From NCBI GenBank assembly GCA_964360785.1, contig CAYHXX010000002.1, positions 92,107 through 156,106 on the forward strand: a stretch of 64,000 nt of DNA, written 5' to 3'. Origin of the DNA: an uncultured Gammaproteobacteria bacterium (lineage in GTDB: Bacteria > Patescibacteriota > Microgenomatia > Woykebacterales > RBG-16-39-9b). This document shows positions 11,796 to 60,742 of the stretch, one piece after another (position 1 is the stretch's first letter; each line of letters opens with the position of its first letter). The notes under the pieces are model-generated. The model was not told the DNA's origin and made no database searches. It saw only the letters and a list, made by a program, of their open reading frames with translations. Position numbers and translations under genes: made by a program.

Positions 11796-11797
11796 CT

Positions 11798-12898: not shown

Positions 12899-12901
12899 AA
12901 G

Positions 12902-16573: not shown

Positions 16574-16601
16574 AATTTTTAAGTTACTCCTTGGTCTTCT
16601 C

Positions 16602-20903: not shown

Positions 20904-21175
20904 ATGCCCAAAAGTTGCACCTTAAAAACCAAATAGCAAGCAAAGAAAGAGAGAAACTCCTTGATCTCTCATCAGGGGACACTCCGCAGAAATTAGAAAT
21001 TGCTGAAGGGTGCCCCTTGATGAGAATGCATTTTGCACTCATCGAAGGGTTAACCACGTAACCATCTTCTTTTAAGCGCGCCTTAGGGTGCAGCTTGGGA
21101 GGGTGTTTGGGTAACCAATTCGGTAGTGCATAGGCACTTAGCTTTTGATGGCTAGGACCATCAAGGAGGATCAGA

Positions 21176-31119: not shown

Positions 31120-32204
31120 GTAATCAATCCTCCACGGTTAAAGACAACTTGTGCGATTAATCTAATTATGACCAAAGCCGAGATGAGAAGCAATAACCCC
31201 ACGGCAGCGTTGGTCAAGGTACTGCGAGCTTCGGAAACAGCTTTTTCGTCCCCGCGGGCAATCATATAGCGCAAACCACCCCAGAGCAGCATAAAGAAAA
31301 AAGCTAAACAACCAACTGCCAATAAAGCAAGCAATATTTGGGTCACCAACTCACCAAAGCTTTGGTAATCTTTGCCAACACAATTTCCAGTAGCGAGTTG
31401 GAAAGCACAAGAAAGATCAAACGAGTTGTTAGTAATTTTTCCAACCTCGTTACTACCTCCAAAAAAACTAATTCCAAAACGTTTTTCGAAAACTCCGCTG
31501 ACAGCAGCCGACCCCAGCACTATTACAAGACCGATTACCGATCCGGTCATTGTCCCTCGAGCACTATCTACTGCTTTTGGATCACCTCGGGAGGTTAGAT
31601 AACGCAGAGCCCCGATCGAGAAGACTATGACAGCTAGGAAGCCAACCAAAGTAAAAACAATTACCAGAGCGTTGGTAATCAAACCCCCCAAACTAAATTT
31701 TCCTCCGGTCGGGTCCGTAACTTTACTTAGAGTAGCATCGGTTATAACACCAGAACCGTCAGGGCCGCTTGGCGAACCTTCGCTTGGAGATCCGTCACTA
31801 GGTGGTGGGGTAGTTGTTGGAGGTGTGGAGGTAGAGGTCCCAGGAGTAAAACTTTGCCCATCACTGGGTGAGCAGGGTCCAAAACCAACAAACCCAACCC
31901 TGGTGGTATAGGTATGCCCATTAATAAAGCCAAGGCCCTGGGGAAGAGTAATAGATTTTTGGCTTTCACCAGTTGAAATAGTTGCATTGATAACTTGACC
32001 AACTAAAGCCCCATTTTTGGAAGGGTCAACCACATAAACAGTATATTTCCCTGGTTGACCAGTAAGGCCCACAATTGCATCAGAATTGGAAGTTACTGTC
32101 GCGACAGAAAAACTACAAGTCGCCGCATTAACTTGCTGAGGGGTTTGAAGAAAGAAGGATCCAAAGGAAAATAGTAAGATTGGAAGAAAAAGAAATTTTT
32201 TCAT
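31116..32204 (-). CDS. large pilin-family protein: N-terminal Ig-like/ST-rich domain plus two pilin repeats
   Basis: Two copies of the G..RY..(S/A)RGD.KAV..AR.T.T..(V/A).GL motif in the C-terminal half. Confidence 0.65.
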   Translation of the reverse strand: MKKFLFLPILLFSFGSFFLQTPQQVNAATCSFSVATVTSNSDAIVGLTGQPGKYTVYVVDPSKNGALVGQVINATISTGESQKSITLPQGLGFINGHTYTTRVGFVGFGPCSPSDGQSFTPGTSTSTPPTTTPPPSDGSPSEGSPSGPDGSGVITDATLSKVTDPTGGKFSLGGLITNALVIVFTLVGFLAVIVFSIGALRYLTSRGDPKAVDSARGTMTGSVIGLVIVLGSAAVSGVFEKRFGISFFGGSNEVGKITNNSFDLSCAFQLATGNCVGKDYQSFGELVTQILLALLAVGCLAFFFMLLWGGLRYMIARGDEKAVSEARSTLTNAAVGLLLLISALVIIRLIAQVVFNRGGLIT

Positions 32205-39855: not shown

Positions 39856-39881
39856 GTCCCAGTAGCTCAGTTGGATAGAAC
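39856..39881 (+). other. tRNA 5' fragment (acceptor plus D-arm) matching tRNA-Arg(CCG) at 42662
   Basis: GTCCCAGTAGCTCAGTTGGATAGAAC matches the first 25 nt of the 42662 tRNA with one change. Confidence 0.4.
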
Positions 39882-39945
39882 TTTTTTGAGAGCTAGATCA
39901 AAAAAGGTTCTGCGTCCTTCGGACTAAGAGCGTAGGTAATGATAT

Positions 39946-40068: not shown

Positions 40069-40080
40069 TCTGGGACGCCA
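40069..40080 (+). other. tRNA 3' fragment (CTCTGGGACGCCA), complementary partner of the 39856 5' fragment
   Basis: Identical to the acceptor 3' strand plus discriminator-CCA of tRNA-Arg(CCG). Confidence 0.35.
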
Positions 40081-40185: not shown

Positions 40186-41091
40186 ATAGTTAACGAAAGG
40201 TTTGTTTCAATCATTTTCAAATAAATAATGAATATCTTTGTATCGGGTTCCCTCGCCTTTGATAACATCATGGATTTTCCTGACCATTTTCGAAATCATA
40301 TTTTGCCTGGTAAAACGCACAACCTAAATGTCAGTTTTTTGATAAACAGTTTAAAAACTAATTTTGGGGGAACAGCTGGAAACATTGCATATAGTTTGGC
40401 TTTGCTGGGGGAAAGGCCAATTATTCTGGCCACCGCTGGAAAAGATTTTGATAAATATAAAGATTGGTTGAGTATACACGGGGTCGACATTTCCCACGTC
40501 AAAATAATTGATAATGAGATGACAGCAACGGCCCATATTATTACAGATAAAAGCGATAATCAAATTACTGCATTTTACCCAGGTTCGATGAAATATCCTG
40601 GAGTAGCATTAAGTGCTGGGTTACTAAGTAGAGACTCGTTGGCGATAGTTTCTCCAGGCTACATGGGGGACATGTTAAGTTATGTCTCTAGTTATAATAA
40701 AAATAAAGTTTCCTATATTTTTGACCCCGGTCAGCAGATTCCAGCACTAACCCCTGAAGAAATTAAAAAAGGCATAGCAGGAGCTAAAATTTTTATTTCA
40801 AATGACTACGAAGTGTCTCTAATTTTGGAGAAAACTGGTTGGACTGAGACTGATATAATGGGCAAAGTTGAAATTTTAGTTACCACTTTCGGAGGGAAGG
40901 GTTCGGTAATCAAAAGTAAAGGGAAAATATATTCAATTCCAGCAGCAAAACCTAAAAATCTTAAAGACCCAACAGGAGCGGGGGATGCTTATCGGGCGGG
41001 TTTTATTAAAGGTCTTATTGATGGTTTGACTCTAGATAAAATTGGCCGATTAGCAAGTGTAGTTTCGGCCTATGCGGTTGAGACATATGGA

Positions 41092-42627
<1,536 letters not shown>

Positions 42628-42661
42628 TTGTCGAAACCAGATTGCTGTAAATAAAATGAAT

Positions 42662-43223: not shown

Positions 43224-43805
43224 TTACAGGACCAGAGGGTTCGCGCTGCTACTAGCTGTCGACGAGGTGCCGAGCGATCCTACGACGGTCGCAAGGCGGT
43301 GAGCTATTCCGGCGACGGAGGAGGGATTCGCTGCCACTCTTCCTCTCAGCCGTCGGGCTTTCTTCACGTCGTCGATACCGCCGTCAAACGTTGTCGCGCC
43401 GGACGTGCGCTGCCGCCACATCGGGTTGCCGTGCTGCGCCTCGGATAACAGGGACGCGAACGTTCGTCTGAGGTAGTCGAGAGCCGAGCTTGTCAACAGG
43501 ATCGCGCCGGTCGCCAGCAGCAAAGCCATGATCGCTAAAGCTGCCGTTGGGTGACCGGTCGCCGTCGCCGTGATCATCGACGCTGTCTTCGCCGCGTCGC
43601 TCGTGACGAACGCCGCTGCTCGAGGGACGTCAGTGGTCGGTGTCAGCACGACCTGGGCGCGCTGAGTCATCTGGCTCACGATCGTCATCCCGTCGGAGAG
43701 CGACGGTGGGGAGATCGAGCCATCGTGTGCCGTGCGGTAGCCGAAGCCCAGTACCAGGGCCGCGACCGCTGCTAGCACCGCGAATCGGAAGGTTAACTCC
43801 CGCAT
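43224..43805 (-). CDS. hypothetical Ala-rich membrane protein (193 aa) in a high-GC islet
   Basis: Around 62% GC against a ~40% background; N-terminal and central hydrophobic helices. Confidence 0.5.
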   Translation of the reverse strand: MRELTFRFAVLAAVAALVLGFGYRTAHDGSISPPSLSDGMTIVSQMTQRAQVVLTPTTDVPRAAAFVTSDAAKTASMITATATGHPTAALAIMALLLATGAILLTSSALDYLRRTFASLLSEAQHGNPMWRQRTSGATTFDGGIDDVKKARRLRGRVAANPSSVAGIAHRLATVVGSLGTSSTASSSANPLVL

Positions 43806-44099: not shown

Positions 44100-44191
<92 letters not shown>

Positions 44192-44197
44192 AATATC

Positions 44198-44470
44198 ATG
44201 GAAAATGAAACCAGAGTTAAAAGACTCGAAGAAGAAATTGAAAAAATAAAAGCCCGTAATGAAAAAGTGGAGCGGGATAAGAGGTGGGAAACAAGTTTGT
44301 TCCGGGCTGTGAGTGTTGGGTTACTAACTTATTCTGTAATGGTTGTTTTTATGCTCTCTATTTCTATTGAGAAGCCTTTTATTAACGCGATCATTCCAAC
44401 TCTTGGGTTTTTGTTGTCCACATTTTCCCTCCCGTTTCTAAAGAATTTTTGGATAAGAAAACAAAAATAG
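44198..44470 (+). CDS. small coiled-coil plus two-TM membrane protein
   Basis: The track ORF 44132 begins inside the tRNA; first ATG lies after the tRNA. Confidence 0.5.
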   Translation: MENETRVKRLEEEIEKIKARNEKVERDKRWETSLFRAVSVGLLTYSVMVVFMLSISIEKPFINAIIPTLGFLLSTFSLPFLKNFWIRKQK

Positions 44471-44515
44471 AGCCTGGCTTGCCTTACGTTACTTTATCCT
44501 CTATTATGCTTTTCA

Positions 44516-48987: not shown

Positions 48988-49015
48988 TTGATTTTGATCT
49001 GAGCTTGTGTATAAT
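48988..49015 (+). promoter_or_regulatory. sigma-70-like promoter for tRNA-Asn (TTGATT-16-TATAAT with TGTG extension)
   Basis: -35 at 48988-93, -10 at 49010-15, about 20 nt before the tRNA 5' end. Confidence 0.45.
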
Positions 49016-49035
49016 AATCGAGTCCAAGTCTACAT

Positions 49036-49110
49036 TCCCCGGTAGCTCAACGGTAGAGCACCTCGCTGTTAACGAGATTGTTGTAGGTTCGAATCCTACC
49101 CGGGGAGCCA
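49036..49110 (+). tRNA. tRNA-Asn(GTT)
   Basis: Cloverleaf, anticodon loop CTGTTAA, CCA encoded. Confidence 0.85.
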
Positions 49111-49150
49111 GAAAAAGGCGATTGAGTTTATCTCAAGCGTCTTTTTCTTG
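49111..49150 (+). terminator. conserved terminator-like hairpin (copy 1 of 3)
   Basis: GAAAAAGGCGATTGAG-TTTA-TCTCAAGCGTCTTTTTC; homologous copies at 53109 and 54295. Confidence 0.5.
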
Positions 49151-49214
49151 TTTTCAGGGATGAGAACCTATGTGAGAATCCCTAGCTTTCTTAAGCGCAG
49201 GTCGCGCTAGCGAT

Positions 49215-49229
49215 CTACCCGGGGAGCCA
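49215..49229 (+). repeat. 15-nt direct repeat of the tRNA-Asn 3' end (CTACCCGGGGAGCCA), att-like
   Basis: Exact copy of 49096-49110, 105 nt downstream of the tRNA. Confidence 0.6.
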
Positions 49230-49290
49230 AATATTTTAGCCTCAAACTCTACGCATTCCTCAAAAGTAAAGTTTATTATATAATCCACTC

Positions 49291-49605
49291 GTGACTTTAA
49301 AGAAACTACAGAAAAGAATCTTTGCAAACAAAATTAAACAGGGTTTTAATATCTCTTCAGACTACAAGGGTATCAGTCATGAAATTTCGTTGTTGGTAGA
49401 GGAGTTAGGTGAGTTGGCACGAAGTCATAGGAGAGGTAACAAGGAAGGCATTGTTGATGCTAACATCGATTTATTAGTTCATATATTGGGGCTGATGGAA
49501 ATATTGGGATTAGATGGAGATGAAGAGGTGGGAAAAGTATTGATTGAAGTAGAAAAAAGGAAGTATGCCAAGGGTGCTGACGGAACTTATAAAAGACTTA
49601 AATAA
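49291..49605 (+). CDS. MazG-like nucleotide pyrophosphohydrolase (small)
   Basis: EELGELA motif, 104 aa. Confidence 0.55.
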   Translation: MTLKKLQKRIFANKIKQGFNISSDYKGISHEISLLVEELGELARSHRRGNKEGIVDANIDLLVHILGLMEILGLDGDEEVGKVLIEVEKRKYAKGADGTYKRLK

Positions 49606-49641
49606 AAAGTTTCCACATACTGAGTCATAGCAGAAAGATAG

Positions 49642-50061
49642 TCAGGATTTTTTTAAAGCCTCTACCAAAATTTCGTTTGTCCCTGGAAGGGAATCTAGAT
49701 CCTTTACTTTATCTAGTTCCACCCAATCAACTTTCTGGACGTGATGGTCTTCTGGTTTTTCATCTTGCGAAACGAAATCGCACACAAAAATAAAGCATAG
49801 AGTTTGCTGATTGCCCCAATCATACTTCCAGTAATTTGTCTGCACGTAGGGAAGTAAGCGGTTTACTGTTACCTTAACACCTGTTTCCTCTAGTACCTCT
49901 CGAACAATTGCCTCTTGTGGAGTTTCACCGAAATCAGCTTTACCACCAGGATATTCCCATTTTAGATGAGCGTCAGGAAGCTCACTTTCCTTACGCAATG
50001 TCATCAATAATTTGTTGTCTTTGATTACAACTGCCGAGAAAACAGTAATTTGCTTATCCAT
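49642..50061 (-). CDS. NUDIX hydrolase
   Basis: Nudix box GGKADFGETPQEAIVREVLEETG. Confidence 0.7.
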   Translation of the reverse strand: MDKQITVFSAVVIKDNKLLMTLRKESELPDAHLKWEYPGGKADFGETPQEAIVREVLEETGVKVTVNRLLPYVQTNYWKYDWGNQQTLCFIFVCDFVSQDEKPEDHHVQKVDWVELDKVKDLDSLPGTNEILVEALKKS

Positions 50062-50150
50062 AAGTTAAATTATAACAACTTTATGGTCCTGAGTGCTTTG
50101 AAAGGCTAGTTTTTTGTTGGGGAAAGTCTTCATAACAGAAATACTGAAAG

Positions 50151-50243
50151 CTGATATACAAATATTTTTGGTATATCAGGTGTTATATACCCGCAGATTA
50201 AGTATATCAGAATATTGACATTCTGTTATACACAAGGTATTAT
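50151..50243 (+). promoter_or_regulatory. Fic promoter (TTGACA-17-TATTAT) preceded by and overlapping a CTGATATAC/GTATATCAG operator
   Basis: 9-bp inverted repeat 50151-59/50171-79, third half-site 50202-10 abutting the -35 at 50215-20; -10 at 50238-43. Confidence 0.45.
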
Positions 50244-50250
50244 TTACTTA

Positions 50251-51339
50251 ATGGCAACTCACCATCTTCCAAAATCCTTACCTCCAACACTTAACTATGG
50301 GGAATTTGCGAAAGAGCTAGCAAAAGCTACTTATCAAATTGGACTATTACAAGGCTCCCAGGCAAGGCTACAAAATGCTTTCCACCTGATTGGACCTCTT
50401 GTTGCTAAAGAAGCTGCAGTTAGTTCAAAAATTGAAGGAACGCAAAGTACATCATCAGATATATACATCTACGATGCTGGTGGTAAGCCTAAATACTCTG
50501 ATACACCAGTCGTGTCAAATTATCGGGCGGCTATGTTGGATGCAATTTCATCAATAAAAGCAGGAAGAAATTTAACAAATAGTTTGATAAAGTCACTTCA
50601 CGCAACTTTGTTAAAGGATGTTAGGCACAAAGGTGTATTAGGTGATTTTAGAGATAAGCCAGTTTGGATTGCTGAAAAAGAAGGAGACCCGATTGAGAAA
50701 GCGTTGTACATACCCCCCGAACATTTCCATGTACCCTCGTATATGGAAAATATACTAGATTATGTTGAGAACAATAAGGACGATTTAAATATTGTTAAGG
50801 CTGGGGTGGTACATTACCAATTTGAAGCGGTTCACCCGTTTGAAGATGGCAACGGAAGAATAGGGCGATTATTGATTCCCCTAATCCTGTTTTACAAAAG
50901 AGAATTATCATTGCCTATTGTTTATAGTAGCGGTTATTTTGAAGCTAGGGCTTCAGAGTACAGGGATGCATTAAGAATTGTTGATGAGACAGGTAAGTAT
51001 GAAAAGTGGCTAGTGTTCTTTTTTGATGCGATTTCGGAACAAGCAAAAGAAACTATTAACTTAATTGATAGAATACTTTTGTTGCGTAACACAATTCAAT
51101 CTAAGTACGAAAGTTCTAAATCTCCTTACATGAATAGGTTTATAGACTATTTATTTGAATCACCAATATTTACTATTCCACAAATGCAAAACAAAATTTC
51201 TATTGGTGTTAGGTTAACGGCGGTCAGATTGGTCGAGCAACTTGAAAAAGACAATGTGATTCAAGAAGTAAGAGGAACTAAGGGTCCTAGAGGCTCTAAA
51301 TTATTCGCCTTCAATAACTTGTTAGCAATAATTAGGTAG
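50251..51339 (+). CDS. Fic family protein (AMPylase-type)
   Basis: HPFEDGNGRIGR Fic motif. Confidence 0.8.
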   Translation: MATHHLPKSLPPTLNYGEFAKELAKATYQIGLLQGSQARLQNAFHLIGPLVAKEAAVSSKIEGTQSTSSDIYIYDAGGKPKYSDTPVVSNYRAAMLDAISSIKAGRNLTNSLIKSLHATLLKDVRHKGVLGDFRDKPVWIAEKEGDPIEKALYIPPEHFHVPSYMENILDYVENNKDDLNIVKAGVVHYQFEAVHPFEDGNGRIGRLLIPLILFYKRELSLPIVYSSGYFEARASEYRDALRIVDETGKYEKWLVFFFDAISEQAKETINLIDRILLLRNTIQSKYESSKSPYMNRFIDYLFESPIFTIPQMQNKISIGVRLTAVRLVEQLEKDNVIQEVRGTKGPRGSKLFAFNNLLAIIR

Positions 51340-51349
51340 AAGTATAGAA

Positions 51350-51379
51350 GGTTCCAACATACTCGACCAGAGCGAGCCA
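51350..51379 (+). repeat. 30-nt cassette-boundary repeat R1 (GGTTCCAACATACTCGACCAGAGCGAGCCA)
   Basis: One of five same-orientation copies (see findings). Confidence 0.6.
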
Positions 51380-51472
51380 TTACCCCATAGTATTGATTTC
51401 TTTATTTATTTCCTATATAATGTGCCTTGTCTGCGGTGGATGTAAAGGCCACGAGACAAGGAGAGTTGATCG

Positions 51473-51829
51473 ATGGTTAGTCTCAATCTAACTGCAGTAC
51501 TCGAAGAAAGTGAAGTGAAAGGACTTCGAGCGGGTCTCAAAGAGCTCCTTCGTTGCCAGAAAGAGTTAAGGTCATTAGTACCTGACCTTGACCATACAGG
51601 GCAGGTTGATATAGAGAATCTTCTCTTGACCGACCGACCAGAATTTGCACCACGGATTAGAATCCTGCTAAACACAATGCAGGACGTGAGGCAAGAAGTG
51701 CAGAAGGTCGCAGAGAAGGCATCTAAACGACTCCGAGAGTCTTTGTGTTCTGCATTGCTGCCTGGTTCTGAAACCTTCGTAGACAAGTTGGAGTACGAAG
51801 ACCTTCTAGATCAGGTGATGTCTTCGTAA
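51473..51829 (+). CDS. hypothetical protein (118 aa)
   Basis: Preceded by a TATAAT and a 5'-UTR hairpin CCTTGTCT/AGACAAGG. Confidence 0.45.
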   Translation: MVSLNLTAVLEESEVKGLRAGLKELLRCQKELRSLVPDLDHTGQVDIENLLLTDRPEFAPRIRILLNTMQDVRQEVQKVAEKASKRLRESLCSALLPGSETFVDKLEYEDLLDQVMSS

Positions 51830-52004
51830 GCCAGTCCCATTCCGCTCAACGAGACTCTAAATTTTATTTGGGGAGAAAGTGTCCTTTGGGTGCGAGGTGG
51901 GACAAAAGAGAAATCTTAAATCCTCGCCAATCCCAAGCAAATCTTTAAACAAGGTTTCCTTAGGACAAGTAACTAGCTGAAAGGCTAGTTTTTTGTTGGT
52001 AAAA

Positions 52005-52034
52005 AGTTCCCACATAATCGACTAGAGCGAGCCA
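52005..52034 (+). repeat. 30-nt repeat R2 (variant TCGACTAGAGCGAGCCA), directly after the CTAGC..GCTAG terminator at 51973-51994
   Basis: Sequence identity to R1, R3, R4 and R5. Confidence 0.6.
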
Positions 52035-52143
52035 ATAAGGCAAGTAATTGTGGTCTTGAAAAATAGGATTAAATTCATTAAGATTTTGACTAGGAATTAA
52101 GAGAACCGTTCGGATAAATCGAAGCGGTCTTTTGATTCTTTGG

Positions 52144-52167
52144 CTAGCTATTAAAGGCTAGTTTTTT
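52144..52167 (+). terminator. CTAGC-TATTAAAG-GCTAG hairpin plus T-run (copy of the AAAGGCTAGTTTTTTGTT element)
   Basis: Perfect 5-bp stem plus a T-run of six. Confidence 0.45.
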
Positions 52168-52181
52168 GTTACACTAAGGAA

Positions 52182-53048
52182 ATGGACATATTATTTGCTT
52201 GGGTTGCTTCTATTTCCTCAGGTATCTCACCGCTTGTAGTTAAAGCCTCAAGTAAATCGCTAATAAAGAACCCCTGGCTTTTTAATCTGTTGTGGATTGC
52301 CTTTGGTATCCCGCTAATAGTAGCTCTGGCTCTGTGGCAGGGTGGGGGTTTACCGAAAGATTGGTTGTCAATAACATTTTTAGCAATCAGCTCAGCCTTG
52401 TTTTACGCGTTGTACACAATTTCACTTTACAAGATTGACGTTACAACAATGGGGCCATTGTTTAGCCTTAGGACAGTCTTCGCCGTTATATTAGGAGTTG
52501 TAGTCCTACACGAAAATGTTAGTCCTTTTGGGTTAGGACTAATTTTACTGATTGTATTGATGAGCCCTTTTGCCGCGTACAACGAGAACTTAAAAATGAG
52601 AGCTTTTTTCCAGAAATACGTTCTAGTAGCAGTTGCTTCTATGGTCTTTCTCGCTCTTGATGGTTATTTTACTAATATCTCAGTTAATAAAAATGGTTAC
52701 GCAACAACTTTGTTATGGCAGGACCTCCTTACGCTAGCTCTACTTCTACCAACATTAAAGTTCGTAAAAAAGGAGGAAACAGGGGAGTTTAAGACCAAAA
52801 ATTTCTACCCATTTATGCTACTTGGACTAACCCACTTTGGGTATCTTGTTACTGCCAATCTGGCTTACGCCCACAATCTTGCTCTGAGTAGTGTCGTTGT
52901 GTCTCTACCGCTATCAATGGTGTTTGCCTATTTGTTGTCTCGACGATACCCGAAATTTTTGGAAAATCATTCTTCAAAAGTGTACTTGATACGTTTTTCT
53001 GCCGCATTAGTGATGGTTAGTTGTGCTATTTGGTTGAGTTTTCTCTAG
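52182..53048 (+). CDS. ten-TM membrane protein, DMT/EamA-like transporter (weak call)
   Basis: 288 aa, hydrophobicity pattern of an EamA duplication. Confidence 0.55.
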   Translation: MDILFAWVASISSGISPLVVKASSKSLIKNPWLFNLLWIAFGIPLIVALALWQGGGLPKDWLSITFLAISSALFYALYTISLYKIDVTTMGPLFSLRTVFAVILGVVVLHENVSPFGLGLILLIVLMSPFAAYNENLKMRAFFQKYVLVAVASMVFLALDGYFTNISVNKNGYATTLLWQDLLTLALLLPTLKFVKKEETGEFKTKNFYPFMLLGLTHFGYLVTANLAYAHNLALSSVVVSLPLSMVFAYLLSRRYPKFLENHSSKVYLIRFSAALVMVSCAIWLSFL

Positions 53049-53078
53049 ATTCTAATTAGCGTAAGTTGTTTGGTAGTG

Positions 53079-53108
53079 GGTTCCTACGTAATCGACCAGA
53101 GCGAGCCA
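53079..53108 (+). repeat. 30-nt repeat R3 followed by a conserved hairpin (53109..53153)
   Basis: GGTTCCTACGTAATCGACCAGAGCGAGCCA then GAAAAAGGCGACCGAAATCCTTCAGGCGTCTTTTTC. Confidence 0.6.
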
Positions 53109-53213
53109 GAAAAAGGCGACCGAAATCCTTCAGGCGTCTTTTTCTAGTTTTGGAGTCGGTGGGAGCCTTTTGGGTTATTTGACATGTAAGTAGCAACTTG
53201 AGAGCATGGTTTT

Positions 53214-54260
53214 ATGGAGTCAAATCAGAAAACTCATCCTAAACCATTATCCCAACCAATTATTCAACATCAACCATCCAATACCACCCCAACTAATTCT
53301 CCTTCAAAATCAAAACTAAAAATTTATATTGCAACCTTTGTAATAGCTATTTTGCTGATTAGCATTGGCGGGCATATGTTAAGTAAAACTAAATTCACAA
53401 AACCGACATCGACACAAGACTCTGTGTATTCGCCAGCGTCTATCCCGACAATACCCGCAACAAGCGCATCCGCCATTACTTCACCCCCATCAAGTATGGA
53501 AGGTATTAATACTCATACGGAATTGTATAGTAATACTGGTGCTGATCAAAATCTAATTACACTTGGTCCCAAAATTGACAGTTATTCAAGATCGATGCCC
53601 TATCTTGGAAAACGTGGATTCGAATTCGAACTTGATAGTAAAGCACCGCTACTTGCGCCTATGGATATGATATTAACAGGATTTCAAAATAATAGTACCG
53701 AATATGGGATTGGAGCAGACGGGCAAAAATACACACCAATGAACGACCTCATGTTGTCTTTTGAATCCGACAGTCCTGATTGGCCAGGCGTAGTTATTGT
53801 TTTATATCATTTATATACCTCACCTTTAATACCTGGGCACTATCAAAATTCAGATTGCGGCGATATTGAAATAGGTTCTAATAAATTCCAATCCGAGGGA
53901 CATCTTTTCTTTGCATATGATGATTACACAGTCTCACCAAAAAATAACGCAGAAGCTTGCCAAGCGCTCATCGGATACAAGGTAAAGCGTGGTGAACTGA
54001 TTGGATATGCAGGCAATGTAGGCGAGCACTCCTTTGCTTCATTCTGTTTCAAGGTGCCAGACAAATCAATAAGTCCGATTGTAAAAAAGGGAAACCAAAA
54101 TCTGCATTGGGTTCAGCCGGCATCGTTCTTCTATTGGAAGAGTTACAGCCCTGATGCGGATTTCCCGCCTGGAGTGCTTGCGTACCCCTTTGAAATTGAC
54201 GGCTATCAGCTTCCTGCTAAACAACATGATGTGAATTTTAAGTACACCTCAACGAAATAA
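53214..54260 (+). CDS. hypothetical membrane-anchored/secreted protein (348 aa)
   Basis: Pro/Thr-rich N-terminus, TM anchor, large exodomain. Confidence 0.55.
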   Translation: MESNQKTHPKPLSQPIIQHQPSNTTPTNSPSKSKLKIYIATFVIAILLISIGGHMLSKTKFTKPTSTQDSVYSPASIPTIPATSASAITSPPSSMEGINTHTELYSNTGADQNLITLGPKIDSYSRSMPYLGKRGFEFELDSKAPLLAPMDMILTGFQNNSTEYGIGADGQKYTPMNDLMLSFESDSPDWPGVVIVLYHLYTSPLIPGHYQNSDCGDIEIGSNKFQSEGHLFFAYDDYTVSPKNNAEACQALIGYKVKRGELIGYAGNVGEHSFASFCFKVPDKSISPIVKKGNQNLHWVQPASFFYWKSYSPDADFPPGVLAYPFEIDGYQLPAKQHDVNFKYTSTK

Positions 54261-54287
54261 AATATGTTCTAACATCGCCCACTAGGT

Positions 54288-54361
54288 GGAGCCAGAAAAA
54301 GGCGACTGAAATCTTTCAGGCGTCTTTTCTCGTTTTCAGGGATGAGAACCTACGTGAGAAT
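54288..54361 (+). repeat. degenerate repeat end (GGAGCCA), then a conserved hairpin (54295..54332), then the 30-nt element GTTTTCAGGGATGAGAACCTACGTGAGAAT
   Basis: The same hairpin-plus-30-mer arrangement follows tRNA-Asn at 49111..49179. Confidence 0.55.
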
Positions 54362-54477
54362 AGTACTTTTGCGAAGCAAATGCAGAGAGCGTTGGCGACC
54401 CACCTACGAAGCCAGTTTATTCCGTTACCTATTGACAATAATTAAGAAAACTCAGAACATTGATACAATGCCAGATC

Positions 54478-55106
54478 AAGTTTTATCACATCCTCAAGAT
54501 CGTTCGGGACCCAACACTAAAATAATAAGTCTTATTATTTTTGTTCTTGGGGCAGTTGTAATTTTATCCGTGGCTGGTTTTTGGTATTTAAGAGACAAAC
54601 AGTCTCCAGATTCAAATGAAACCTCAACAAATAGTAGTTCTTTAAATAAAAAGGAAAGCCTTGAATTCTACGCCCCTGCTTTTGTGCCTGAAGGTTATAA
54701 AATTTATGAGAGTTCATTAAAAGACTATTTCAATTACGGGCCAAACTATTATGAGATTGTTTACATTTATGGAAACAACAATAGTAATGATCCTTTTCCA
54801 TTTAATATCACCTCTTTTGCTAAACCATCTTATTTCAACCCCCCTACTGACTGTGGTTGGCAAAGACCTGACCCAAGCACCCGAAAAGGCAATCATGTGG
54901 AACAAAAATGCCGGTTGGTTGCAACACTAGCTAATGGGTCGGACGTGTTTTATGCGGAACTTTTAAACGATGCTGGGTCAGTGTATTACACCAAAATAGA
55001 TAATACTGAGATTACTTTAGGAACGGGTATAGGAACTTCTAGAGCCCTAATAAACGAACATGATGCAATAAAGGTACTTAACTCTCTAGAGAAGAAATCA
55101 CAATAG
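54478..55106 (+). CDS. hypothetical membrane-anchored protein (true start likely MPDQVL.., codon 43 of the track ORF, which starts inside the repeat)
   Basis: The track ORF 54342 begins within the conserved 30-nt element; TM helix after the internal Met; a promoter-like TTGACA lies upstream. Confidence 0.5.
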
Positions 55107-55139
55107 TAGTTAAATACGAACTTAACCCCTTTTGTAAAA

Positions 55140-55170
55140 ACTTCCCAACACACTCGACCAGAGCGAGCTA
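55140..55170 (+). repeat. 30-nt repeat R4 (ends GAGCTA)
   Basis: ACTTCCCAACACACTCGACCAGAGCGAGCTA. Confidence 0.55.
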
Positions 55171-55174
55171 AGAA

Positions 55175-55726
55175 TTATTTTATTTTCCTCTTCCATGCAA
55201 GGACTAACAAAATCAGACCAGCTGCCTCTAGTAGAATACCTATTAGCTGCATAGTGCTTGCAGCCGAAACCCAACTTGCAGCTTCTTCCAAATACCAAGT
55301 TCTCTTTAGTTCTATTGCAGAAGAAACCCACTTGACCACTTCGATTCTGTAAAGAGCGGCGTTAAAAAAGAAAACCAAGGCCACCGACGCCAGGGTAAGT
55401 CCAAGTAAGGCCTTGATTTGGTTTAGATCCAGCTTGTTAAATAGAGGCTTGGATATATCAGTAGCCGCTTTGTTCTTAAGAAGCATCAGAAAGCTAACCA
55501 CCAAAAGTATAAAAGCTATAACGAAAGCAATCCCTGCACCCCTAATCCAATTCCAGCCAACTTCGGCATAGGCATCCAGAGGCTCTTCTTTATAAGCAGC
55601 TAGCCAACCGAAGCCTTCAAACAAATAAACTGTAGCAAAAACGAGTAAGCTTATACCGATAGAGACGAAAACAACACTTATCCAACCGCTCTTTTTGTTA
55701 AAGTCAAAACGCTGAAGGTAATTCAT
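55175..55726 (-). CDS. four-TM membrane protein (183 aa)
   Basis: Hydrophobicity profile. Confidence 0.5.
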   Translation of the reverse strand: MNYLQRFDFNKKSGWISVVFVSIGISLLVFATVYLFEGFGWLAAYKEEPLDAYAEVGWNWIRGAGIAFVIAFILLVVSFLMLLKNKAATDISKPLFNKLDLNQIKALLGLTLASVALVFFFNAALYRIEVVKWVSSAIELKRTWYLEEAASWVSAASTMQLIGILLEAAGLILLVLAWKRKIK

Positions 55727-55881
55727 TTATTTAATTATACAAAATTTCTAAGATAAAAAGCTCCTGACTTCGTTTACAAACGGTGCCAATTTGTTTTCCT
55801 TCCCTCAAGTTGCTTTTCCAAAATTTTAGTACTAAAATTCCGACAACCAAGCAAGCATGGGGAGCGGTTACGGAGGGATCC

Positions 55882-56676
55882 ATGAGTAACCTAAACAGTA
55901 CGGTGCTGGTGGCCGACAACGATCTTGGTGCGCAGAGGCTGTTCAGGATTGCGCTGCTAAAGCAGTTCAACGTCCACACAGTGGTGCCAAACGGCGATCA
56001 AACCACGCTTGAGATGTTTGCAGCTCTTGCACAGACGGTTCTTCCTGATCTGATCATACTTGATCCACAGACGACGGGATTGTCAGTGCAGGCTGTCCGA
56101 AAGGAGCTGAAGACACCACTCATGGTAGTTTCGGGTCTATGTGCGGACACCAATATACGTTTGTCCTATCTGAACGACGGTGCCGACGACAGTCAGACAA
56201 AGCCGTTTGGCGGTGATGAGCTAGCTGCCAGAATTCGGGCTGTTCTTCGGCCCTACGCCCGCCGCACTTCTGAGCTGAGAGATGTGATCGAGATTGGAGA
56301 TGTCTGCATCGACCTGAATAGCAGGCTCATCACCAAAAGTGGAAAGAGCATCACGCTCACCCGGACTGAGTTCAATCTTCTTGAGATGATGGTGGGTAAG
56401 GTAAATTGTCTGCTTAGCTACGGACAAATCCTTGCGCACGTTTGGGGTCCTGAGTATGTAAACGATTCCTCAAACCTGCAAAACTGGGTCTACAGGCTGC
56501 GGGGCAAGCTCGAAGACGACCCACGACACCCGCGTCTGATAAAGACCTTCCAAGGAATTGGCTACATGTTGTGTCAGCTGGGTGTAGAGCCAGAGTTGAC
56601 CGACCAGTTCTCAACTGTAGACAAGACAATAGAGTTGCCTCACGAGATTCAAGAGAGAACTCCGGCATTGGTTTAG
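55882..56676 (+). CDS. OmpR-family response regulator (orphan, high-GC)
   Basis: Receiver domain features (LIILDP, VVSG, KPF) plus a winged-helix C-terminus (LTRTEFNLLEMM..VWG); about 55% GC; no histidine kinase nearby. Confidence 0.7.
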   Translation: MSNLNSTVLVADNDLGAQRLFRIALLKQFNVHTVVPNGDQTTLEMFAALAQTVLPDLIILDPQTTGLSVQAVRKELKTPLMVVSGLCADTNIRLSYLNDGADDSQTKPFGGDELAARIRAVLRPYARRTSELRDVIEIGDVCIDLNSRLITKSGKSITLTRTEFNLLEMMVGKVNCLLSYGQILAHVWGPEYVNDSSNLQNWVYRLRGKLEDDPRHPRLIKTFQGIGYMLCQLGVEPELTDQFSTVDKTIELPHEIQERTPALV

Positions 56677-56851
56677 CCCTGTCCGGAGCGTAAATTGGAT
56701 GTCAACTAGGCCAGCATCCCACCGCACCCGAAGCGCCCTAGTTACTATGACGGGCGTATGCGACACGACGGTGGGGTTTGGTACGGGAGGTTGTTGTGAA
56801 AGCACGGCCTTCCTTCTTTATTTAAGAACAGAATAAAGTAAAATTGAAAAA

Positions 56852-57394
56852 CTAATTTAAGGGTTGAATGTTTGGGTGCTCGGCTTTTTCATCGACGAGA
56901 TATTTATAACCAATTGGTTCGACTGTATCGATTCCTAAAACTTTTACTAAATCTATTAGCTTATCTTCAGCGAAAACGTGTTTAGAAGAAAAGACGTTAT
57001 TAATTTGATCTTCAGTAACACCTTCTTTAGCAATTTCTTTAAGCAGGGCACCGTGATTATTTTCTGTTATAAGCTTTTGAGTATCCTCGGACTCATCTTC
57101 AATAAATTCCTCCAAACTTGTAAACGCATCAATTAAGTCACCATTTTTGTAGTAATAGTAAATGAGAGCATCGCTATCGTGTACAAGAAAAGCTATCGCA
57201 GGACATCTAAACATACTTGAACAGGTTTGAGTGAAAGCATGGAGTGTAGCAATGTCTTGTTCCTCAGTTTCTTGAGGGTAAATAGTTATCCAAATTGGAT
57301 TCGAAGAAACAAAAACCTTTTTGTCTTTTAAGGCTACTTTAATAGTCTCAAGATCGTTGGTTTTAAGACTAATATTTGTGAAGAAAGCTCCCAT
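56852..57394 (-). CDS. hypothetical protein (180 aa)
   Basis: ORF only. Confidence 0.45.
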   Translation of the reverse strand: MGAFFTNISLKTNDLETIKVALKDKKVFVSSNPIWITIYPQETEEQDIATLHAFTQTCSSMFRCPAIAFLVHDSDALIYYYYKNGDLIDAFTSLEEFIEDESEDTQKLITENNHGALLKEIAKEGVTEDQINNVFSSKHVFAEDKLIDLVKVLGIDTVEPIGYKYLVDEKAEHPNIQPLN

Positions 57395-57460
57395 TAAGAA
57401 AATAATAGCAACTATTATTGAAAATAAAAAGTTTCAACCCTCCTTCGCTAAAGCTTCGTA

Positions 57461-57490
57461 AGGTCAGGCATTCTCGACCAGAGCGATCCA
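57461..57490 (+). repeat. 30-nt repeat R5 (AGGTCAGGCATTCTCGACCAGAGCGATCCA) followed by GGTTTTTTGTTGGTTAA
   Basis: Sequence identity with R1-R4. Confidence 0.55.
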
Positions 57491-57562
57491 GGTTTTTTGT
57501 TGGTTAAATTAAAAGGGACGGGCCATCGGTTCGAGAGCCCATCCCTTTGCTGACATTTTGTC

Positions 57563-58261
57563 CTATCTTCGGGCGAGCAATATTTGCGGTGTCTTAGCCT
57601 CTTCCTCAGCGGTTCTCTTCCGTTCTGCCTCGCCAGTCATTGGAACAAAGGCCACCGAATCCAGATAGTGCTGCTCGAATCCCCCAGCCGTCTTTGTCAA
57701 GACAAATAGGTTCTGCATTGAGTCTTGAGGGCCAACCGGAATCACCAACTTGCCTCCAAGAGCAAGCTGCTCTTTGAGTGCAGGTGGAATTTCAACCGGT
57801 GCAGCCGCGACAACAATTGCATCGAATGGCGCTTTTTCGGGCCAACCAAAGTAGCCGTCACCTACTCGAATTTCGACTGAGTAACCGAGCCGTGACAGAC
57901 ATTCACTTGCGGTGCGAGCCAGAAGCTCGTTGATCTCAACCGAGTAAACTTCCACACCCATCGCTGCTAACACTGCGGCCTGATATCCGGAACCAGTGCC
58001 AATGTCAAGAACTCGCTGACCTGGTTTGGCACCAGACAGTTGGATCGTGGCAGCAACAATGAAAGGCTGACTGATCGTCTGACCCTCTTCTATTTGTGAT
58101 GCGTGGTCGTGGTAGGCGTGTTCAGACACTTTCGGAGGCATGAATTTGTGTCTTGGCACTTTGTACATGGCAGAGAGAACTAGCTCATCATTGATCCCCC
58201 AAGGTCTAAGGTGCTCTCGGATCATCTGTAACCTGTCCAGGCAATAGTCGAGTGTCATCAT
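57563..58261 (-). CDS. pcm: protein-L-isoaspartate O-methyltransferase
   Basis: SAM motif VLDIGTGSGYQAAVLA and ISQPFIVA; start probably MMTLDY (the track ORF extends to 58312). Confidence 0.8.
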   Translation of the reverse strand: MMTLDYCLDRLQMIREHLRPWGINDELVLSAMYKVPRHKFMPPKVSEHAYHDHASQIEEGQTISQPFIVAATIQLSGAKPGQRVLDIGTGSGYQAAVLAAMGVEVYSVEINELLARTASECLSRLGYSVEIRVGDGYFGWPEKAPFDAIVVAAAPVEIPPALKEQLALGGKLVIPVGPQDSMQNLFVLTKTAGGFEQHYLDSVAFVPMTGEAERKRTAEEEAKTPQILLARR

Positions 58262-58422
58262 CAGACACGCTCCTTTCGAAGTCTCACCGGCGATCTTACC
58301 AGTGAATCCCAATTTCCGGAGAAATTATACCAGAAGTGTGCAAAAGTACCTTGGCTAGTTTTTTGTTGGTGTAACAATATTTCTCCTGTGTCGGCATTTC
58401 CCGACATAGGCTGTTCGTACCG

Positions 58423-59361
58423 TTATTCTGGGGTTTCAAGTTCGACTTGAATGTGGTGGACTGTCGGTTCTTTAGTTTGTACAACCTGTTTGATCCGATC
58501 AGTGAGTTTTTCAATCTCATCCGTATCGAGATCATCCTGCAAATGCACTTCCAGATTTACCAAAAGCTTTTCCGGCCCGAGGTGCATAGTCCGTAGGTCC
58601 AAGACCTCCTTTACTTCTGGTATTTCTAAAGCCGCTGTTCGTATGTTCTTTTCTACTTCGGGAGCAGCGCTGTGGCCAACTAGTAAATCCTTGACACTTT
58701 TAATAAGTAGGAAGGCAAGAATTGCCAGGCTCAGTCCAATTACCATTGCACCGAGACCATCAAAACGTTGTTCGCCTGTAATACCATATAGAAATAGAGA
58801 CAGAAGCCCAATAATTGAGGCTATTGTCCCCATTAGGTCAAGGACAAAGGCAGTTTTGGTCTCAATCAAGGCAGAAGAGAAGAACTTGTGCAAAATTGTT
58901 CCCGAACCACCAGTTTGGCCGAGTCGTCGATAGCTAAGTGAAAAAGAGTAAGCATTGGTCAGGGCTGTTACTACCAAGACAATATAGGCAAGTAGAAGGT
59001 TGTGGACTTCTTCTGGGTGTAAAAACCGCTCAAAGCCAAAATAAAAAGAAAAAGTAGCAGTGACAAAAAGTGTGATCTGGGCAGATATCATCGCCCAGAA
59101 ATACATTTCCCGGCCATGTCCAAAAGGGTATTTTTTGTCAGGAAGTTTGTTTGACGCTCTGACCCCGAGCAAAAGAATCCCCGAGCTGGCCAGATCCGCA
59201 ACTCCTTGTAGTACTTGAGCAAGCATGACTACACTTCCTGACATGAGTGTAATGACCAGGCTTGAGCCAACATCCAAAGCATCAACGATAAAACTAGTCA
59301 GGACAATTTTCTTTGCTGATGGAGCGGAAGAGACTTTTGGCGGAGATTCGAAATCGTTCAC
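58423..59361 (-). CDS. cation diffusion facilitator family transporter
   Basis: Six TM helices plus a C-terminal cytoplasmic domain with HSAAPEVE. Confidence 0.8.
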   Translation of the reverse strand: MNDFESPPKVSSAPSAKKIVLTSFIVDALDVGSSLVITLMSGSVVMLAQVLQGVADLASSGILLLGVRASNKLPDKKYPFGHGREMYFWAMISAQITLFVTATFSFYFGFERFLHPEEVHNLLLAYIVLVVTALTNAYSFSLSYRRLGQTGGSGTILHKFFSSALIETKTAFVLDLMGTIASIIGLLSLFLYGITGEQRFDGLGAMVIGLSLAILAFLLIKSVKDLLVGHSAAPEVEKNIRTAALEIPEVKEVLDLRTMHLGPEKLLVNLEVHLQDDLDTDEIEKLTDRIKQVVQTKEPTVHHIQVELETPE

Positions 59362-59560
59362 AGGTAATTATTATAACAAAGTTAGCTGCTTTTGAGGAGC
59401 AGGAAAGCGAGTTTTTTAGAATATAAGTTTCGAAAAGACTTATAGTGTTGTCTTTTTAAGATTAATTTGCTATAATTTCCCAGAAATTACGGTTCCAATC
59501 GGAATTGGACCTGTTCTTTGACAACAAGTACCTCAACAGAGGTTAGCGGAGGAGATCAAC

Positions 59561-60538
59561 GTGGTCACGGTAATTAAGGATCTTTCGGGGGTGTTTGGGC
59601 GCAAGATCAACACCTTAGTCGGGCACGAACGCCCCGATGCCGATGTCTTTCTCTGTTTCTGGATCGCCCTGCGGTTTGGGCTTTGTATAGTCAATCCCCT
59701 GTACCGTTTTGTTCGGTCTGGGGAAAGACTGGAAAGTGGTGAAGGCGACCCCCAAGTTCTACACGTAGACACAGGTTTGGGGGAGTTCGATACTCACGGT
59801 AAGGGCCTAGGACGAACTTGTGCTGCAGCTCTGCTGGCGGAACGGCTTGGTATAGAAGACCTCCCCGGAATTGCTGATCTGCTGGAGTGGGTGACCAAGA
59901 TCGACAACGCCGAGCTGCTGCTGGACTACACCGACATGTCCTACTACATACTGGATCTTCCGAAACTCGAGGAGGTCAAGGACTGGCGGGGAAGGGTTGA
60001 ATGGGTCAAGGTAGTTAATCTGGCCTACAGGGAGTTTGACAGGCAGTACCAACGGGGTCTTCAGAGGCATCAGAACCGAACCATCGACCTACCCAAGTAC
60101 GCGCAGTGGATCATGACCCCAAAGAAGGAGATTCGTGTCTGCACAATACTTGATCGCAGCTACCTTCGGATCACCGCCTTTGAGGCCGGAGCTGATGTGG
60201 TTGTTTGGACGCAACCCATGGACGGAGCTTTCCACGCTGGGGTTGACATCAACCCAACCGGCGAGAGCCCTGATCGAGTAGAACTGCGGGAGTCTCTCAG
60301 TCTACAGGCAGCTGCGGCTGTGCTCCGTTGGCAGGAGGGACAGAAGCGAGGGTTGGATCTGGATGTGAGCGAATTGGTTTACTGGGGTCAACTACCACCA
60401 GTTCCTAACTGGTTCCTGTATGACTCCAACAAACTGATACGCTGTGGAAGTGGCACACACCCATTGCGTAAGGAGGAGGAGTTCACCAAACTAACCGGTG
60501 AGGAAATAGTACAGGCTGTCATCGCTTCACTGGACTAG
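59561..60538 (+). CDS. hypothetical protein, possible DHH-family phosphoesterase-like, higher GC
   Basis: GHERPDADVF resembles DHH motif I; about 54% GC. Confidence 0.45.
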   Translation: MVTVIKDLSGVFGRKINTLVGHERPDADVFLCFWIALRFGLCIVNPLYRFVRSGERLESGEGDPQVLHVDTGLGEFDTHGKGLGRTCAAALLAERLGIEDLPGIADLLEWVTKIDNAELLLDYTDMSYYILDLPKLEEVKDWRGRVEWVKVVNLAYREFDRQYQRGLQRHQNRTIDLPKYAQWIMTPKKEIRVCTILDRSYLRITAFEAGADVVVWTQPMDGAFHAGVDINPTGESPDRVELRESLSLQAAAAVLRWQEGQKRGLDLDVSELVYWGQLPPVPNWFLYDSNKLIRCGSGTHPLRKEEEFTKLTGEEIVQAVIASLD

Positions 60539-60637
60539 TTGACAGACAAGTCGGAAAAATCACGGTATCAGGGCTAACCGACAATAGCCTTTTTCTAAAG
60601 ATAATCTCTAGACAAGAGGATAGCTTTAGACAAGCAG

Positions 60638-60675
60638 CAACCCGAAGCTTAACGCGAAGGGTTGTTTTTTGTTGG
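60638..60675 (+). terminator. rho-independent terminator (CAACCC/GGGTTG stem) plus TTTTTTGTTGG
   Basis: 6-bp stem, 15-nt loop, T-run. Confidence 0.5.
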
Positions 60676-60742
60676 TTAATAAATTTTATTTAAGTAACTA
60701 TTCAACCTTGGTTTAATCTCGAGAAAAAGCTAAAATATATTC

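Follow-up and report, generated by a model that had tools for sequence, protein, structure and literature searches.

We analysed a variable locus in a 64,000-nt stretch of DNA (contig CAYHXX010000002.1, positions 92,107 to 156,106; the whole stretch is called the window) from an uncultured groundwater bacterium, a Woykebacteria-like member of the Candidate Phyla Radiation (CPR). Exact protein matches assign the sequence to Hainich groundwater metagenomes, and the homologues of its RNaseH_like (YkuK) protein, a neighbour of the array, bear the label Candidatus Woykebacteria/Patescibacteria. The locus is a tandem array of small gene units that begins immediately 3' of a tRNA-Asn(GTT) gene, and its boundaries are marked by a 30-nt site. 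Reading away from the tRNA gene, the array consists of a short module (module B), a MazG/NUDIX/Fic unit, a 118-aa open reading frame (ORF), an EamA gene, module B again, a 348-aa ORF, module B for the third time, an ORF of ~212 aa, and a three-gene unit with a response regulator (Table 1). The units measure 0.06–2.3 kb, and every one of them closes in a ..G(A/C)GCCA-like sequence. The gene calls of the initial annotation, which was made from the sequence alone (MazG-like, NUDIX, Fic, EamA, response regulator, PIMT, and CDF), agreed with Pfam, where PIMT appears as PCMT; several array ORFs had no Pfam family. Between 57491 and 60740 we could recognise no 30-nt site; terminator tails typical of the lineage occur there at 58350 and 60656. 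Homology to the related locus L029 (related loci and genomes carry L-numbers here) resumes only at 60780, so the variable region probably includes the PCMT, CDF, and 325-aa genes and extends to 60.7 kb.

The initial annotation had placed five same-orientation copies of the 30-nt repeat behind tRNA-Asn. All five were recovered, four at the positions given (51350, 52005, 53079, and 57461) and one a single base further on (55141 instead of 55140), and a sixth, divergent copy was added at 54265–54294. The six copies share the orientation of the tRNA-Asn gene and, as had been claimed, lie in intergenic gaps after genes or gene groups. The ending GAGCCA that was ascribed to all copies is present in three of the first five, the copies at 55141 and 57461 ending in GAGCTA and GATCCA. 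The copy that ends at 57490 is part of a longer version of ~61 nt (57430–57490) with an inserted segment, and this long form (GTTCCAACCC, then ~30 nt, then GGCAGGCATACTCGACCAGAGCGAGCCA) is common to the window and L022 (two copies, 79% identical). In a window of 64 kb, 0.00 occurrences of the 30-mer and 0.07 of its 17-nt core are expected by chance, and the core search found no site outside the array within the 64 kb. As already reported for 49215, the last 15 nt of tRNA-Asn are repeated exactly at 49215–49229, and degenerate copies were seen at 53158–53167 and 54400–54414. The consensus of the site is (A/G)GTTCC(N)ACATAnTCGACCAGAGC-GAGCCA, and a profile was built from 12 family members. The profile scores fall with distance from tRNA-Asn, the best-preserved sites being nearest to it (Table 1), which is consistent with entry at or near tRNA-Asn and decay of older sites. 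Short-read contigs of the same strain (L001, L041, and L043) begin or end inside repeats, at 49081 (tRNA), 51981 (shared terminator), and 53099 (30-mer), so arrays of this type are likely under-assembled in metagenome-assembled genomes.

Table 1 Features of the tRNA-Asn array, of its surroundings in the window, and of the related recombinase element
Feature	Position	Strand	Basis or remark
Second, smaller polymorphic insertion point after tRNA-Ser(GGA) (44100-44189)	44100-44480	+	ARAGORN; comparison with relatives
tRNA-Asn(GTT), array anchor	49036-49110	+	ARAGORN; Rfam 69 bits
Module B copy 1, closing in exact 15-nt tRNA-Asn 3' end	49111-49229	+	82% identical to L022; also in L027
Three-gene unit MazG/NUDIX/Fic	49230-51379	+	Starts AATATTTTAGCCTCA, like an L021 unit; ends in site 51350-51379
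MazG-like (PRA-PH)	49291-49605	+	Pfam
NUDIX	49642-50061	-	Pfam
Fic	50251-51339	+	Pfam
30-nt site copy	51350-51379	+	Exact to consensus of initial annotation; 39.1 bits
Single-gene unit, 118-aa ORF (51473-51829)	51380-52034	+	Ends in site 52005-52034
30-nt site copy	52005-52034	+	3 mismatches to that consensus; 38.5 bits
Single-gene unit, EamA-family membrane protein (52182-53048)	52035-53108	+	Pfam EamA, 3.6e-15
30-nt site copy	53079-53108	+	2 mismatches to that consensus; 33.0 bits
Module B copy 2 (short)	53109-53167	+	Same terminator; ends in GGTGGGAGCC
Single-gene unit, 348-aa hypothetical (53214-54260), no family match	53168-54294	+	Ends in divergent site 54265-54294
30-nt site copy, divergent, TGTTCTAACATCGCCCACTAGGTGGAGCCA	54265-54294	+	Repeat finder and profile; 21.0 bits, E 9e-5
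Module B copy 3 (full length)	54295-54414	+	Repeat comparison; ends in degenerate tRNA-3'-like CGAAGCCA
Single-gene unit, hypothetical (ORF 54342-55106, likely start 54468)	54415-55170	+	Ends in site 55141-55170
30-nt site copy ending GAGCTA	55141-55170	+	17-nt core search; 31.7 bits
Three-gene unit with response regulator	55171-57490	+	Ends in ~61-nt long site
183-aa ORF	55175-55726	-	Response-regulator unit
OmpR-type response regulator	55783-56676	+	Pfam; higher GC
180-aa ORF	56852-57394	-	Response-regulator unit
30-nt site copy ending GATCCA	57461-57490	+	17-nt core search; 15.1 bits
Remainder of variable region up to conserved right flank	57491-60740		Pfam; L029 homology
PCMT	57563-58312	-	Pfam
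CDF transporter (Cation_efflux)	58423-59361	-	Pfam
325-aa ORF	59561-60538	+	Variable region before right flank
Phage-satellite-like recombinase element exactly at tRNA-Asn 3' end (relatives only)	L036/L037 10630-20477; L039 1-11397		Recombinase gene opposite to tRNA strand

The 30-mer resembles the segment of tRNA-Asn from the T-loop to CCA (p ~0.0002 against shuffles, and 0.014 without the terminal hexamer), and among the tRNAs of the window it is tRNA-Asn that it matches best. Its final hexamer is that of the tRNA terminus, GAGCCA. Compared with the tRNA segment it has five bases more: GGTTC to CCA takes up 30 nt in the site, against 25 nt in both tRNA-Asn and tRNA-Ser. Almost all conservation falls to the left of the junction that follows this terminus, so to speak in the right ends of the units, which alone are conserved, while the left ends fall into several classes. 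The initial annotation had taken the repeats for decaying copies of the tRNA end; the decay with distance held up, but the 30-mer is a conserved site borne by the elements, of which only the tip matches the tRNA, and not simply a worn tRNA end. Other origins of the repeat were considered and rejected: a partial or pseudo-tRNA (a permissive Rfam search over 49000–58600 gave only the true tRNA-Asn), a tmRNA 3' end (no resemblance), and a dif/Xer-like 11-6-11 arrangement read by eye only (the inner arms are non-palindromic and the locus is near the origin). An apparent symmetry by eye between the 30-mer and the sequence after the junction was dropped, as it was not significant against shuffles.

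Module B (~60–125 nt) is made of tRNA-Asn's own downstream terminator hairpin (GAAAAAGGCGA..TCTTTTT), two small hairpins, and a tRNA-Asn 3' fragment at the end. The window has three copies, where chance would give none, and no copy was found outside the array within the window. Besides its place behind the tRNA, the module recurs immediately 3' of the site copies that end at 53108 (short form) and 54294 (full form); copy 3 is 92–95% identical to copy 1 over the aligned stretches (22 and 37 nt), and the position of module B in the array differs between genomes. These copies inside the array show insertion at internal sites too. A second recurrent module is a terminator with the tail ...GGCTAGTTTTTTGTTGG, which is found at 50101, 51980, 52153, and 58350 and at 51980 runs directly into the 30-nt site at 52005. 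The 118-aa ORF unit has a shared start (TTACCCCATAGTATTGA), a promoter-like site at 51393–51421, and the shared terminator AACTAGCTGAAAGGCTAGTTTTTTGTTGG at 51971–52000, and the same start and terminator modules enclose a different ORF sequence in L022.

The CCA ending raised the question of a role in RNA, either as a tRNA-like 3' end for transcript processing ("punctuation") or as the trace of a reverse transcriptase that copies from CCA ends. The resemblance to the T-loop-to-acceptor segment and the junctions exactly at CCA would agree with it. However, there is no stable fold, no Rfam or tRNA-model signal appeared at any 30-nt copy, module B is not tRNA-like by covariance model, no reverse transcriptase was seen, and promoter-like sequences stand after the junction, which an RNA copy would lack. 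Several copies are also 3' of an intrinsic terminator: the 52005 copy, one L021 copy, and one L022 remnant lie between such a terminator and the next promoter-like site. This placement points to a DNA-level role for the 30-nt site, which would be largely outside transcripts, and we regard an RNA-level element as extremely unlikely.

The interval that holds the array is hypervariable among relatives. The left flank (DnaG, sigma-70, RNaseH_like (YkuK), and tRNA-Asn) and the right flank (MgtE, Sod_Ni, S26 peptidase, and on to the M14 peptidase) are kept, and the gene content between them differs in every genome compared; in the window 12.2 kb separate tRNA-Asn from Sod_Ni, compared with 4.0 kb in L029 and 0.9 kb in L032. 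Within the interval, nucleotide alignment between genomes was restricted to the tRNA, the 30-mers, module B, and the terminator module. Thus an identical gene order in relatives, which the initial annotation had named as a possible outcome, is not what we saw, as content and length are wholly different.

The 30-nt site belongs to a family with members in other genomes. When a collection of species-representative genomes was scanned once with a 20-nt pattern, two real and two chance matches appeared. Each of the two family-carrying genomes (L021 and L022) had a single locus, which argues against a dispersed repeat. In L021 (Woykebacteria), whose site agrees with that of the window at 29 of 30 positions with one insertion, three copies part a TauE-like gene, a regulator group, and a VOC-type gene, and the last copy stands 11 nt before another tRNA (L021 795–869, minus strand, called Gly with the unusual anticodon ACC). 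In L022, the region behind tRNA-Asn holds toxin-antitoxin-like genes, small ORFs, and a Fic gene, as well as four site copies (two of them long) and a full module B. Further arrays behind tRNA-Asn came from a metagenome scan (L025) and a protein-anchored look-up (L027), and L025 has a variant like the divergent copy at 54265–54294. The sites have the orientation of the tRNA in L021, L022, L025, and L027, and the arrays of L022, L025, and L027, like that of the window, begin immediately 3' of the tRNA and are co-oriented with it. A genome-wide element of the repetitive extragenic palindromic (REP) type, another outcome that the initial annotation had allowed for, does not agree with these results: in the 64 kb the site is confined to the array, and elsewhere it was met only in comparable arrays next to tRNAs. 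In a viral collection the core pattern gave only chance matches, which had no upstream similarity, and a pattern for the 5' part of the site gave nothing; in phage and plasmid collections, neither module B nor the site combined with the promoter module was matched.

At the junctions compared (window, L021, L022, L025, and L027), homology breaks just after ..CCA/..GAGCCA, and left and right halves are shuffled. The right half that begins GAAAAAGGCGA (module B) follows the tRNA itself in the window and L027 and the 30-mer at 53108, at 54294, in L022, and in L025 (none was seen after a tRNA fragment). The right half TTTACCCCATAGTATTGAC, with a promoter-like -35, follows a tRNA fragment in L027 and the 30-mer at 51379, in L022, and in L027, and the right half AATAyTTTAGCCTCA follows the tRNA fragment at 49229 and the 30-mer in L021; neither was seen directly after the tRNA. 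A fixed breakpoint with shuffled halves is the signature of site-specific breakage and joining, to which these junctions point; homologous exchange would leave no such pattern. Since all left halves share GAGCCA, the crossover could be placed only within or next to the hexamer.

Replacement of cassettes by homologous recombination through the flanks and modules, in the style of "minimal mobile elements" with no dedicated recombinase and with the 30-mer as an intergenic protein-binding or regulatory element, was weighed against these junctions. It would account for unrelated content within conserved flanks and for the conserved modules of 20–125 nt that are common to cassettes, and the window has no recombinase among the ORFs scanned and does encode genes like those of a type IV secretion system (T4SS). 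But homologous exchange would not fix each homology break at the same base after CCA, nor would it join the same right halves to tRNA, tRNA fragment, and 30-mer; the modules are short for efficient RecA-mediated exchange, and the match of the site's tip to the adjacent tRNA, including CCGCCA behind tRNA-Ser, is left unexplained. We consider this explanation quite improbable.

The match at tRNA-Ser concerns a second, smaller insertion point in the same region. In the window, tRNA-Ser(GGA) is followed by a 90-aa membrane ORF (44190–44480) before the conserved DnaG upstream sequence TTGCCTT. In L036, L037, and L039, a copy of the site detected by profile match, AAGTTCCAACATAGTCAACCAAGCACCGCCA, forms the end of a 1.3-kb insert that lies behind tRNA-Ser(GGA) and before the conserved DnaG upstream sequence; in L036 (5785–7090) the insert holds a small GIY-YIG gene and a high-GC DUF7736 cassette, with the Ser-type 30-mer at its end. 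tRNA-Ser(GGA) ends in ...CTCCGCCA, and the AAGTTCCAACATAGTCAACCAAGCACCGCCA copy combines an Asn-type body with the tip CCGCCA, which is that of tRNA-Ser. In L027 (2757–2842), tRNA-Ser(GGA) is followed by a 75-nt insert that closes in a 16-nt tRNA-Ser copy. In this single example the tip co-varies with the target tRNA, which is suggestive of, and would fit, a site whose terminal hexamer must match its target.

Pieces of tRNA-Arg(CCG) were also seen: a ~26-nt 5' fragment at 39857–39882 (the real gene is at 42662) and a 12-nt 3'-end copy, TCTGGGACGCCA, at 40069–40080. The latter lies 47 nt after tRNA-Arg(GCG) and is preceded by a hairpin, CTTTTTGCGAAGCAAAATG, that resembles the hairpin of module B copy 3 (54368–54386). 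These orphan pieces suggest that the same kind of mini-insert may act at other tRNAs. Between tRNA-Ser(CGA) and tRNA-Arg(CCG), the window has a PfkB kinase and an S-adenosylhomocysteine hydrolase (40186–42661) and no 30-mer; this gap is only 2–13 nt in L032, L033, and L036, and L038 has a PMT glycosyltransferase there.

From these results we propose, with moderate confidence, that the region of 49.1–57.5 kb (probably to 60.7 kb) is a tandem array of recombinase-less micro-islands that accreted by site-specific recombination at the tRNA-Asn 3' terminus. Serial integration of this kind had been suggested by the initial annotation, and it is supported by the junctions, the insertion polymorphism, and the family of sites next to tRNAs. 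In the proposed mechanism, the 3' end of tRNA-Asn (...GGTTCGAATCCTACCCGGGGAGCCA) would be the chromosomal attachment half-site, and each unit would carry a ~30-nt DNA site at its right end. Strands would be exchanged within or next to the shared hexamer GAGCCA, and every insertion would leave a new, reusable ..GAGCCA end, by which the units would stack in one orientation. The recombinase would be supplied in trans, and the best candidate would be a large serine recombinase (LSR) like the one on a Prim-Pol element that relatives carry at the same junction.

In L036, L037, and L039, this LSR gene (525–560 aa) is on the opposite strand and runs into the last 15 nt of tRNA-Asn. It is followed by Prim-Pol, DUF669, helix-turn-helix (HTH) regulators, a 60-aa terminase-small fragment, and zinc-ribbon membrane proteins. 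In CPR assemblies, homologues of this LSR family at ~60% identity number in the thousands, and neither the LSR protein nor the element's flank had a match in the viral collection. In serine integrases the outer motif, that of the zinc-ribbon domain, is reported to be shifted outward by 5 bp in attP relative to attB (PMC3783163). The GGTTC of the 30-mer is likewise displaced by 5 bp away from the tip when compared with that of the tRNA, a geometry that would fit this offset. The array of L025 encodes a 404-aa protein (3801–5015, plus strand) with two C-terminal HTH domains of excisionase/MerR type and an uncharacterised 260-aa N-terminal part, and no catalytic domain could be recognised in it. 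The 3' end of its gene abuts a remnant ...GTAGCGAGCCA junction, much like the recombinase that abuts the tRNA in L036.

Several observations weigh against this accretion model or against parts of it. In agreement with the initial annotation, a scan of the larger window ORFs (~50 of the 69 ORFs of at least 70 aa) revealed no transposase, no HUH protein, and no recombinase of the serine or tyrosine type. Dyad symmetry of the 30-mer with 12 right flanks, including the flank of the relatives' serine-recombinase element, was no better than in shuffles (p 0.22–0.98). The link to the LSR is incomplete: the three assemblies of its element all stop within ~1.2–1.5 kb of one another before the far end, and the element is a putative carrier of the 30-mer. 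The fit to the textbook serine-integrase reaction is also weak, with tRNA-Asn still followed by an intact-looking downstream module; moreover, the junctions of 30-mer and cassette start at 51379 and 52034 would be intact attP-like sites, and integration by attP x attB alone creates none. A tyrosine recombinase is an equally good candidate, because a shared 6-nt tip varying with the target tRNA is more characteristic of the overlap region of such enzymes. We hold a serine recombinase as the enzyme to be less likely than not. The ~60-nt long versions, with a ~30-nt insert within the site, are not accounted for by the model, and it is a single lineage that provides the co-variation of the tip with a second tRNA. 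Finally, all contigs of the same strain, which come from three projects, are collinear with the window, and neither an excised circle nor an empty site nor another arrangement was seen. The collinearity covers every contig that carries the Fic, sigma-70, or EamA protein, and the contigs merely break at repeats; therefore current activity in the population is unproven.

The one-sided conservation also invited a comparison with single-strand or rolling-circle insertion (IS200/IS605-, IS91-, or Helitron-like), in which non-autonomous units would enter 3' of ..GCCA by an HUH enzyme in trans. Asymmetric ends, with the right end alone conserved and the left ends in several classes, and insertion in a strict orientation on the 3' side of a short motif, which is restored by the right end of the element itself, are what such elements would give. 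No TnpA, TnpB, or Rep was present in the window or any related locus examined, however, the 30-mer has no subterminal hairpin, and the 15–17-nt tRNA-end duplications are more typical of integrase att sites. We judge it very improbable.

The alternative offered by the initial annotation, an integron-like system, stood up in its architecture and not in its membership. Here a dedicated recombinase elsewhere would excise and reinsert cassettes, the 30-mer and promoter module being attC-like and the tRNA terminus attI-like. As in integrons and clusters of attC sites lacking integrases (CALINs), the cassettes are co-oriented and mostly of a single gene, each closes in a short site, there is one fixed anchor, conservation is nearly all on the left of the junction (as in attC), and the cassettes contain no recombinase. 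Conserved start (promoter) and end (terminator and site) modules around different ORFs in the window and L022, the changing position of module B between genomes, and the near identity of the site between the window and L021 would also agree. Unlike in integrons, no IntI-like or other recombinase was found in the window ORFs scanned, and the anchor is a tRNA terminus. The 30-nt site lacks the GTTRRRY core and the R''-L''/L'-R' boxes with their symmetry, and it forms no hairpin or folded imperfect palindrome, single-strand DNA folds of short and long copies lying within those of shuffles (z -1.4 to +0.9). The units have their own promoter-like sites and terminators, some genes are inverted, the decay of sites away from the tRNA suggests that mobilisation of old units has ceased, and no rearranged variants were found in the same population. 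We therefore find a true integron-like platform unlikely, and it is just as unlikely that the array is an actively shuffled gene library and not a graveyard of accreted islands.

Among known systems, the micro-island array that we favour comes closest to tandem tRNA/tmRNA island arrays that include cis-mobilisable members: the ssrA genomic islands of Dehalococcoides and islands seeded by tycheposons. In Dehalococcoides, ssrA islands stand in tandem behind the tmRNA gene, a ~540-aa serine recombinase on the reverse strand lies next to attL, cis-mobilisable islands without any integration module make up about half of the total, and the content varies between strains (PMC3146451). The window array shares with them the tandem arrangement behind a tRNA-like gene and variable content, some of its boundaries bear exact or degenerate copies of the gene's 3' end, and their recombinase placement is mirrored by the LSR at tRNA-Asn in L036, L037, and L039. 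It differs in that the anchor is tRNA-Asn (and tRNA-Ser) and not tmRNA, the units are 10–100 times smaller, mostly of one gene, and have no integration module in the window, and most boundaries are not plain 20-nt anchor copies but a separate 30-nt site that shares the last 6 nt and a T-loop-like motif. Tycheposons of Prochlorococcus are 10–20-kb elements with their own integrase and replication genes in tRNA-seeded islands (Hackl et al., bioRxiv 10.1101/2020.12.28.424599). The tRNA seed, new DNA that enters next to the tRNA and pushes older DNA outward, partial tRNA copies, degenerate elements, and cargo mostly without hallmark genes are common to both, and the relatives' element pairs a recombinase with a Prim-Pol replication gene as tycheposons do. 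By Pfam, these integrase and replication hallmark genes are absent from the window array, LSR and Prim-Pol being found in relatives only, and the units here are tiny and modular (promoter, gene, terminator, and site), with a dedicated end site and CPR hosts.

Integrase-less modules that are flanked by short sites, mobilised in trans, and stacked in tandem at one site are also known from the accretion of cis-mobilisable elements (CIMEs) and integrative and conjugative elements (ICEs) at streptococcal tRNA genes and from Xer-dependent modules (integrative mobile elements exploiting Xer and pdif modules). These systems use full tRNA-end att repeats, or 28-bp dif-like sites at the terminus or on plasmids. 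The site here is instead matched to the tRNA tip, and the array is ~40 kb from dnaA. From REP elements, bacterial interspersed mosaic elements, and miniature inverted-repeat transposable elements, it differs in being non-palindromic and confined to the array within the 64 kb. What is unusual is the combination of miniature, modular, integrase-less units, a 30-nt end site that mimics a tRNA end and is apparently retargeted at its tip, and the host lineage.

GC patches of 48–57% against a background of ~42% occur at 1–4000, 21000–24000, 43224–43805, and 55783–56800; they include a 943-aa ORF and a 193-aa ORF, both without a Pfam match, as well as the response regulator, and are probably foreign DNA. 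The ranges 10259–20086 and 31116–32204 hold dnaA-dnaN-recF, which put the origin region ~40 kb from the array, and beside them T4SS-like genes, whose products are PrgI, a T4SS pilin, and a P-loop protein like TraG/VirB4.

How CPR/Patescibacteria, with their tiny genomes, gain genes is poorly understood. The locus offers a compact, modular route by which accessory genes (nucleotide-cleaning enzymes, Fic, transporters, secreted proteins, and a foreign regulator) would be gained at a tRNA terminus. If the array is mere debris of larger islands, it would be an ordinary, though neatly resolved, tRNA hotspot. A bolder and rather speculative idea, to which we give a fairly low probability, is a retargetable micro-cassette platform in CPR: one-gene expression cassettes (promoter, ORF, and terminator) would carry a ~30-nt site with a T-loop-mimicking body and a hexamer "programmed" to the chosen tRNA (GAGCCA for Asn, CCGCCA for Ser), and a recombinase in trans, possibly of the CPR LSR family, would stack them at tRNA termini. 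If true, this platform would be a functional analogue of the integron with a different chemistry and site. If a trans-acting recombinase does use the 30-nt site as its substrate, the units would form a new, very small class of cis-mobilisable elements, the site profile would be a sequence handle for flexible gene pools in uncultured lineages, and the tip that apparently changes with the tRNA may give a naturally retargetable integration site.

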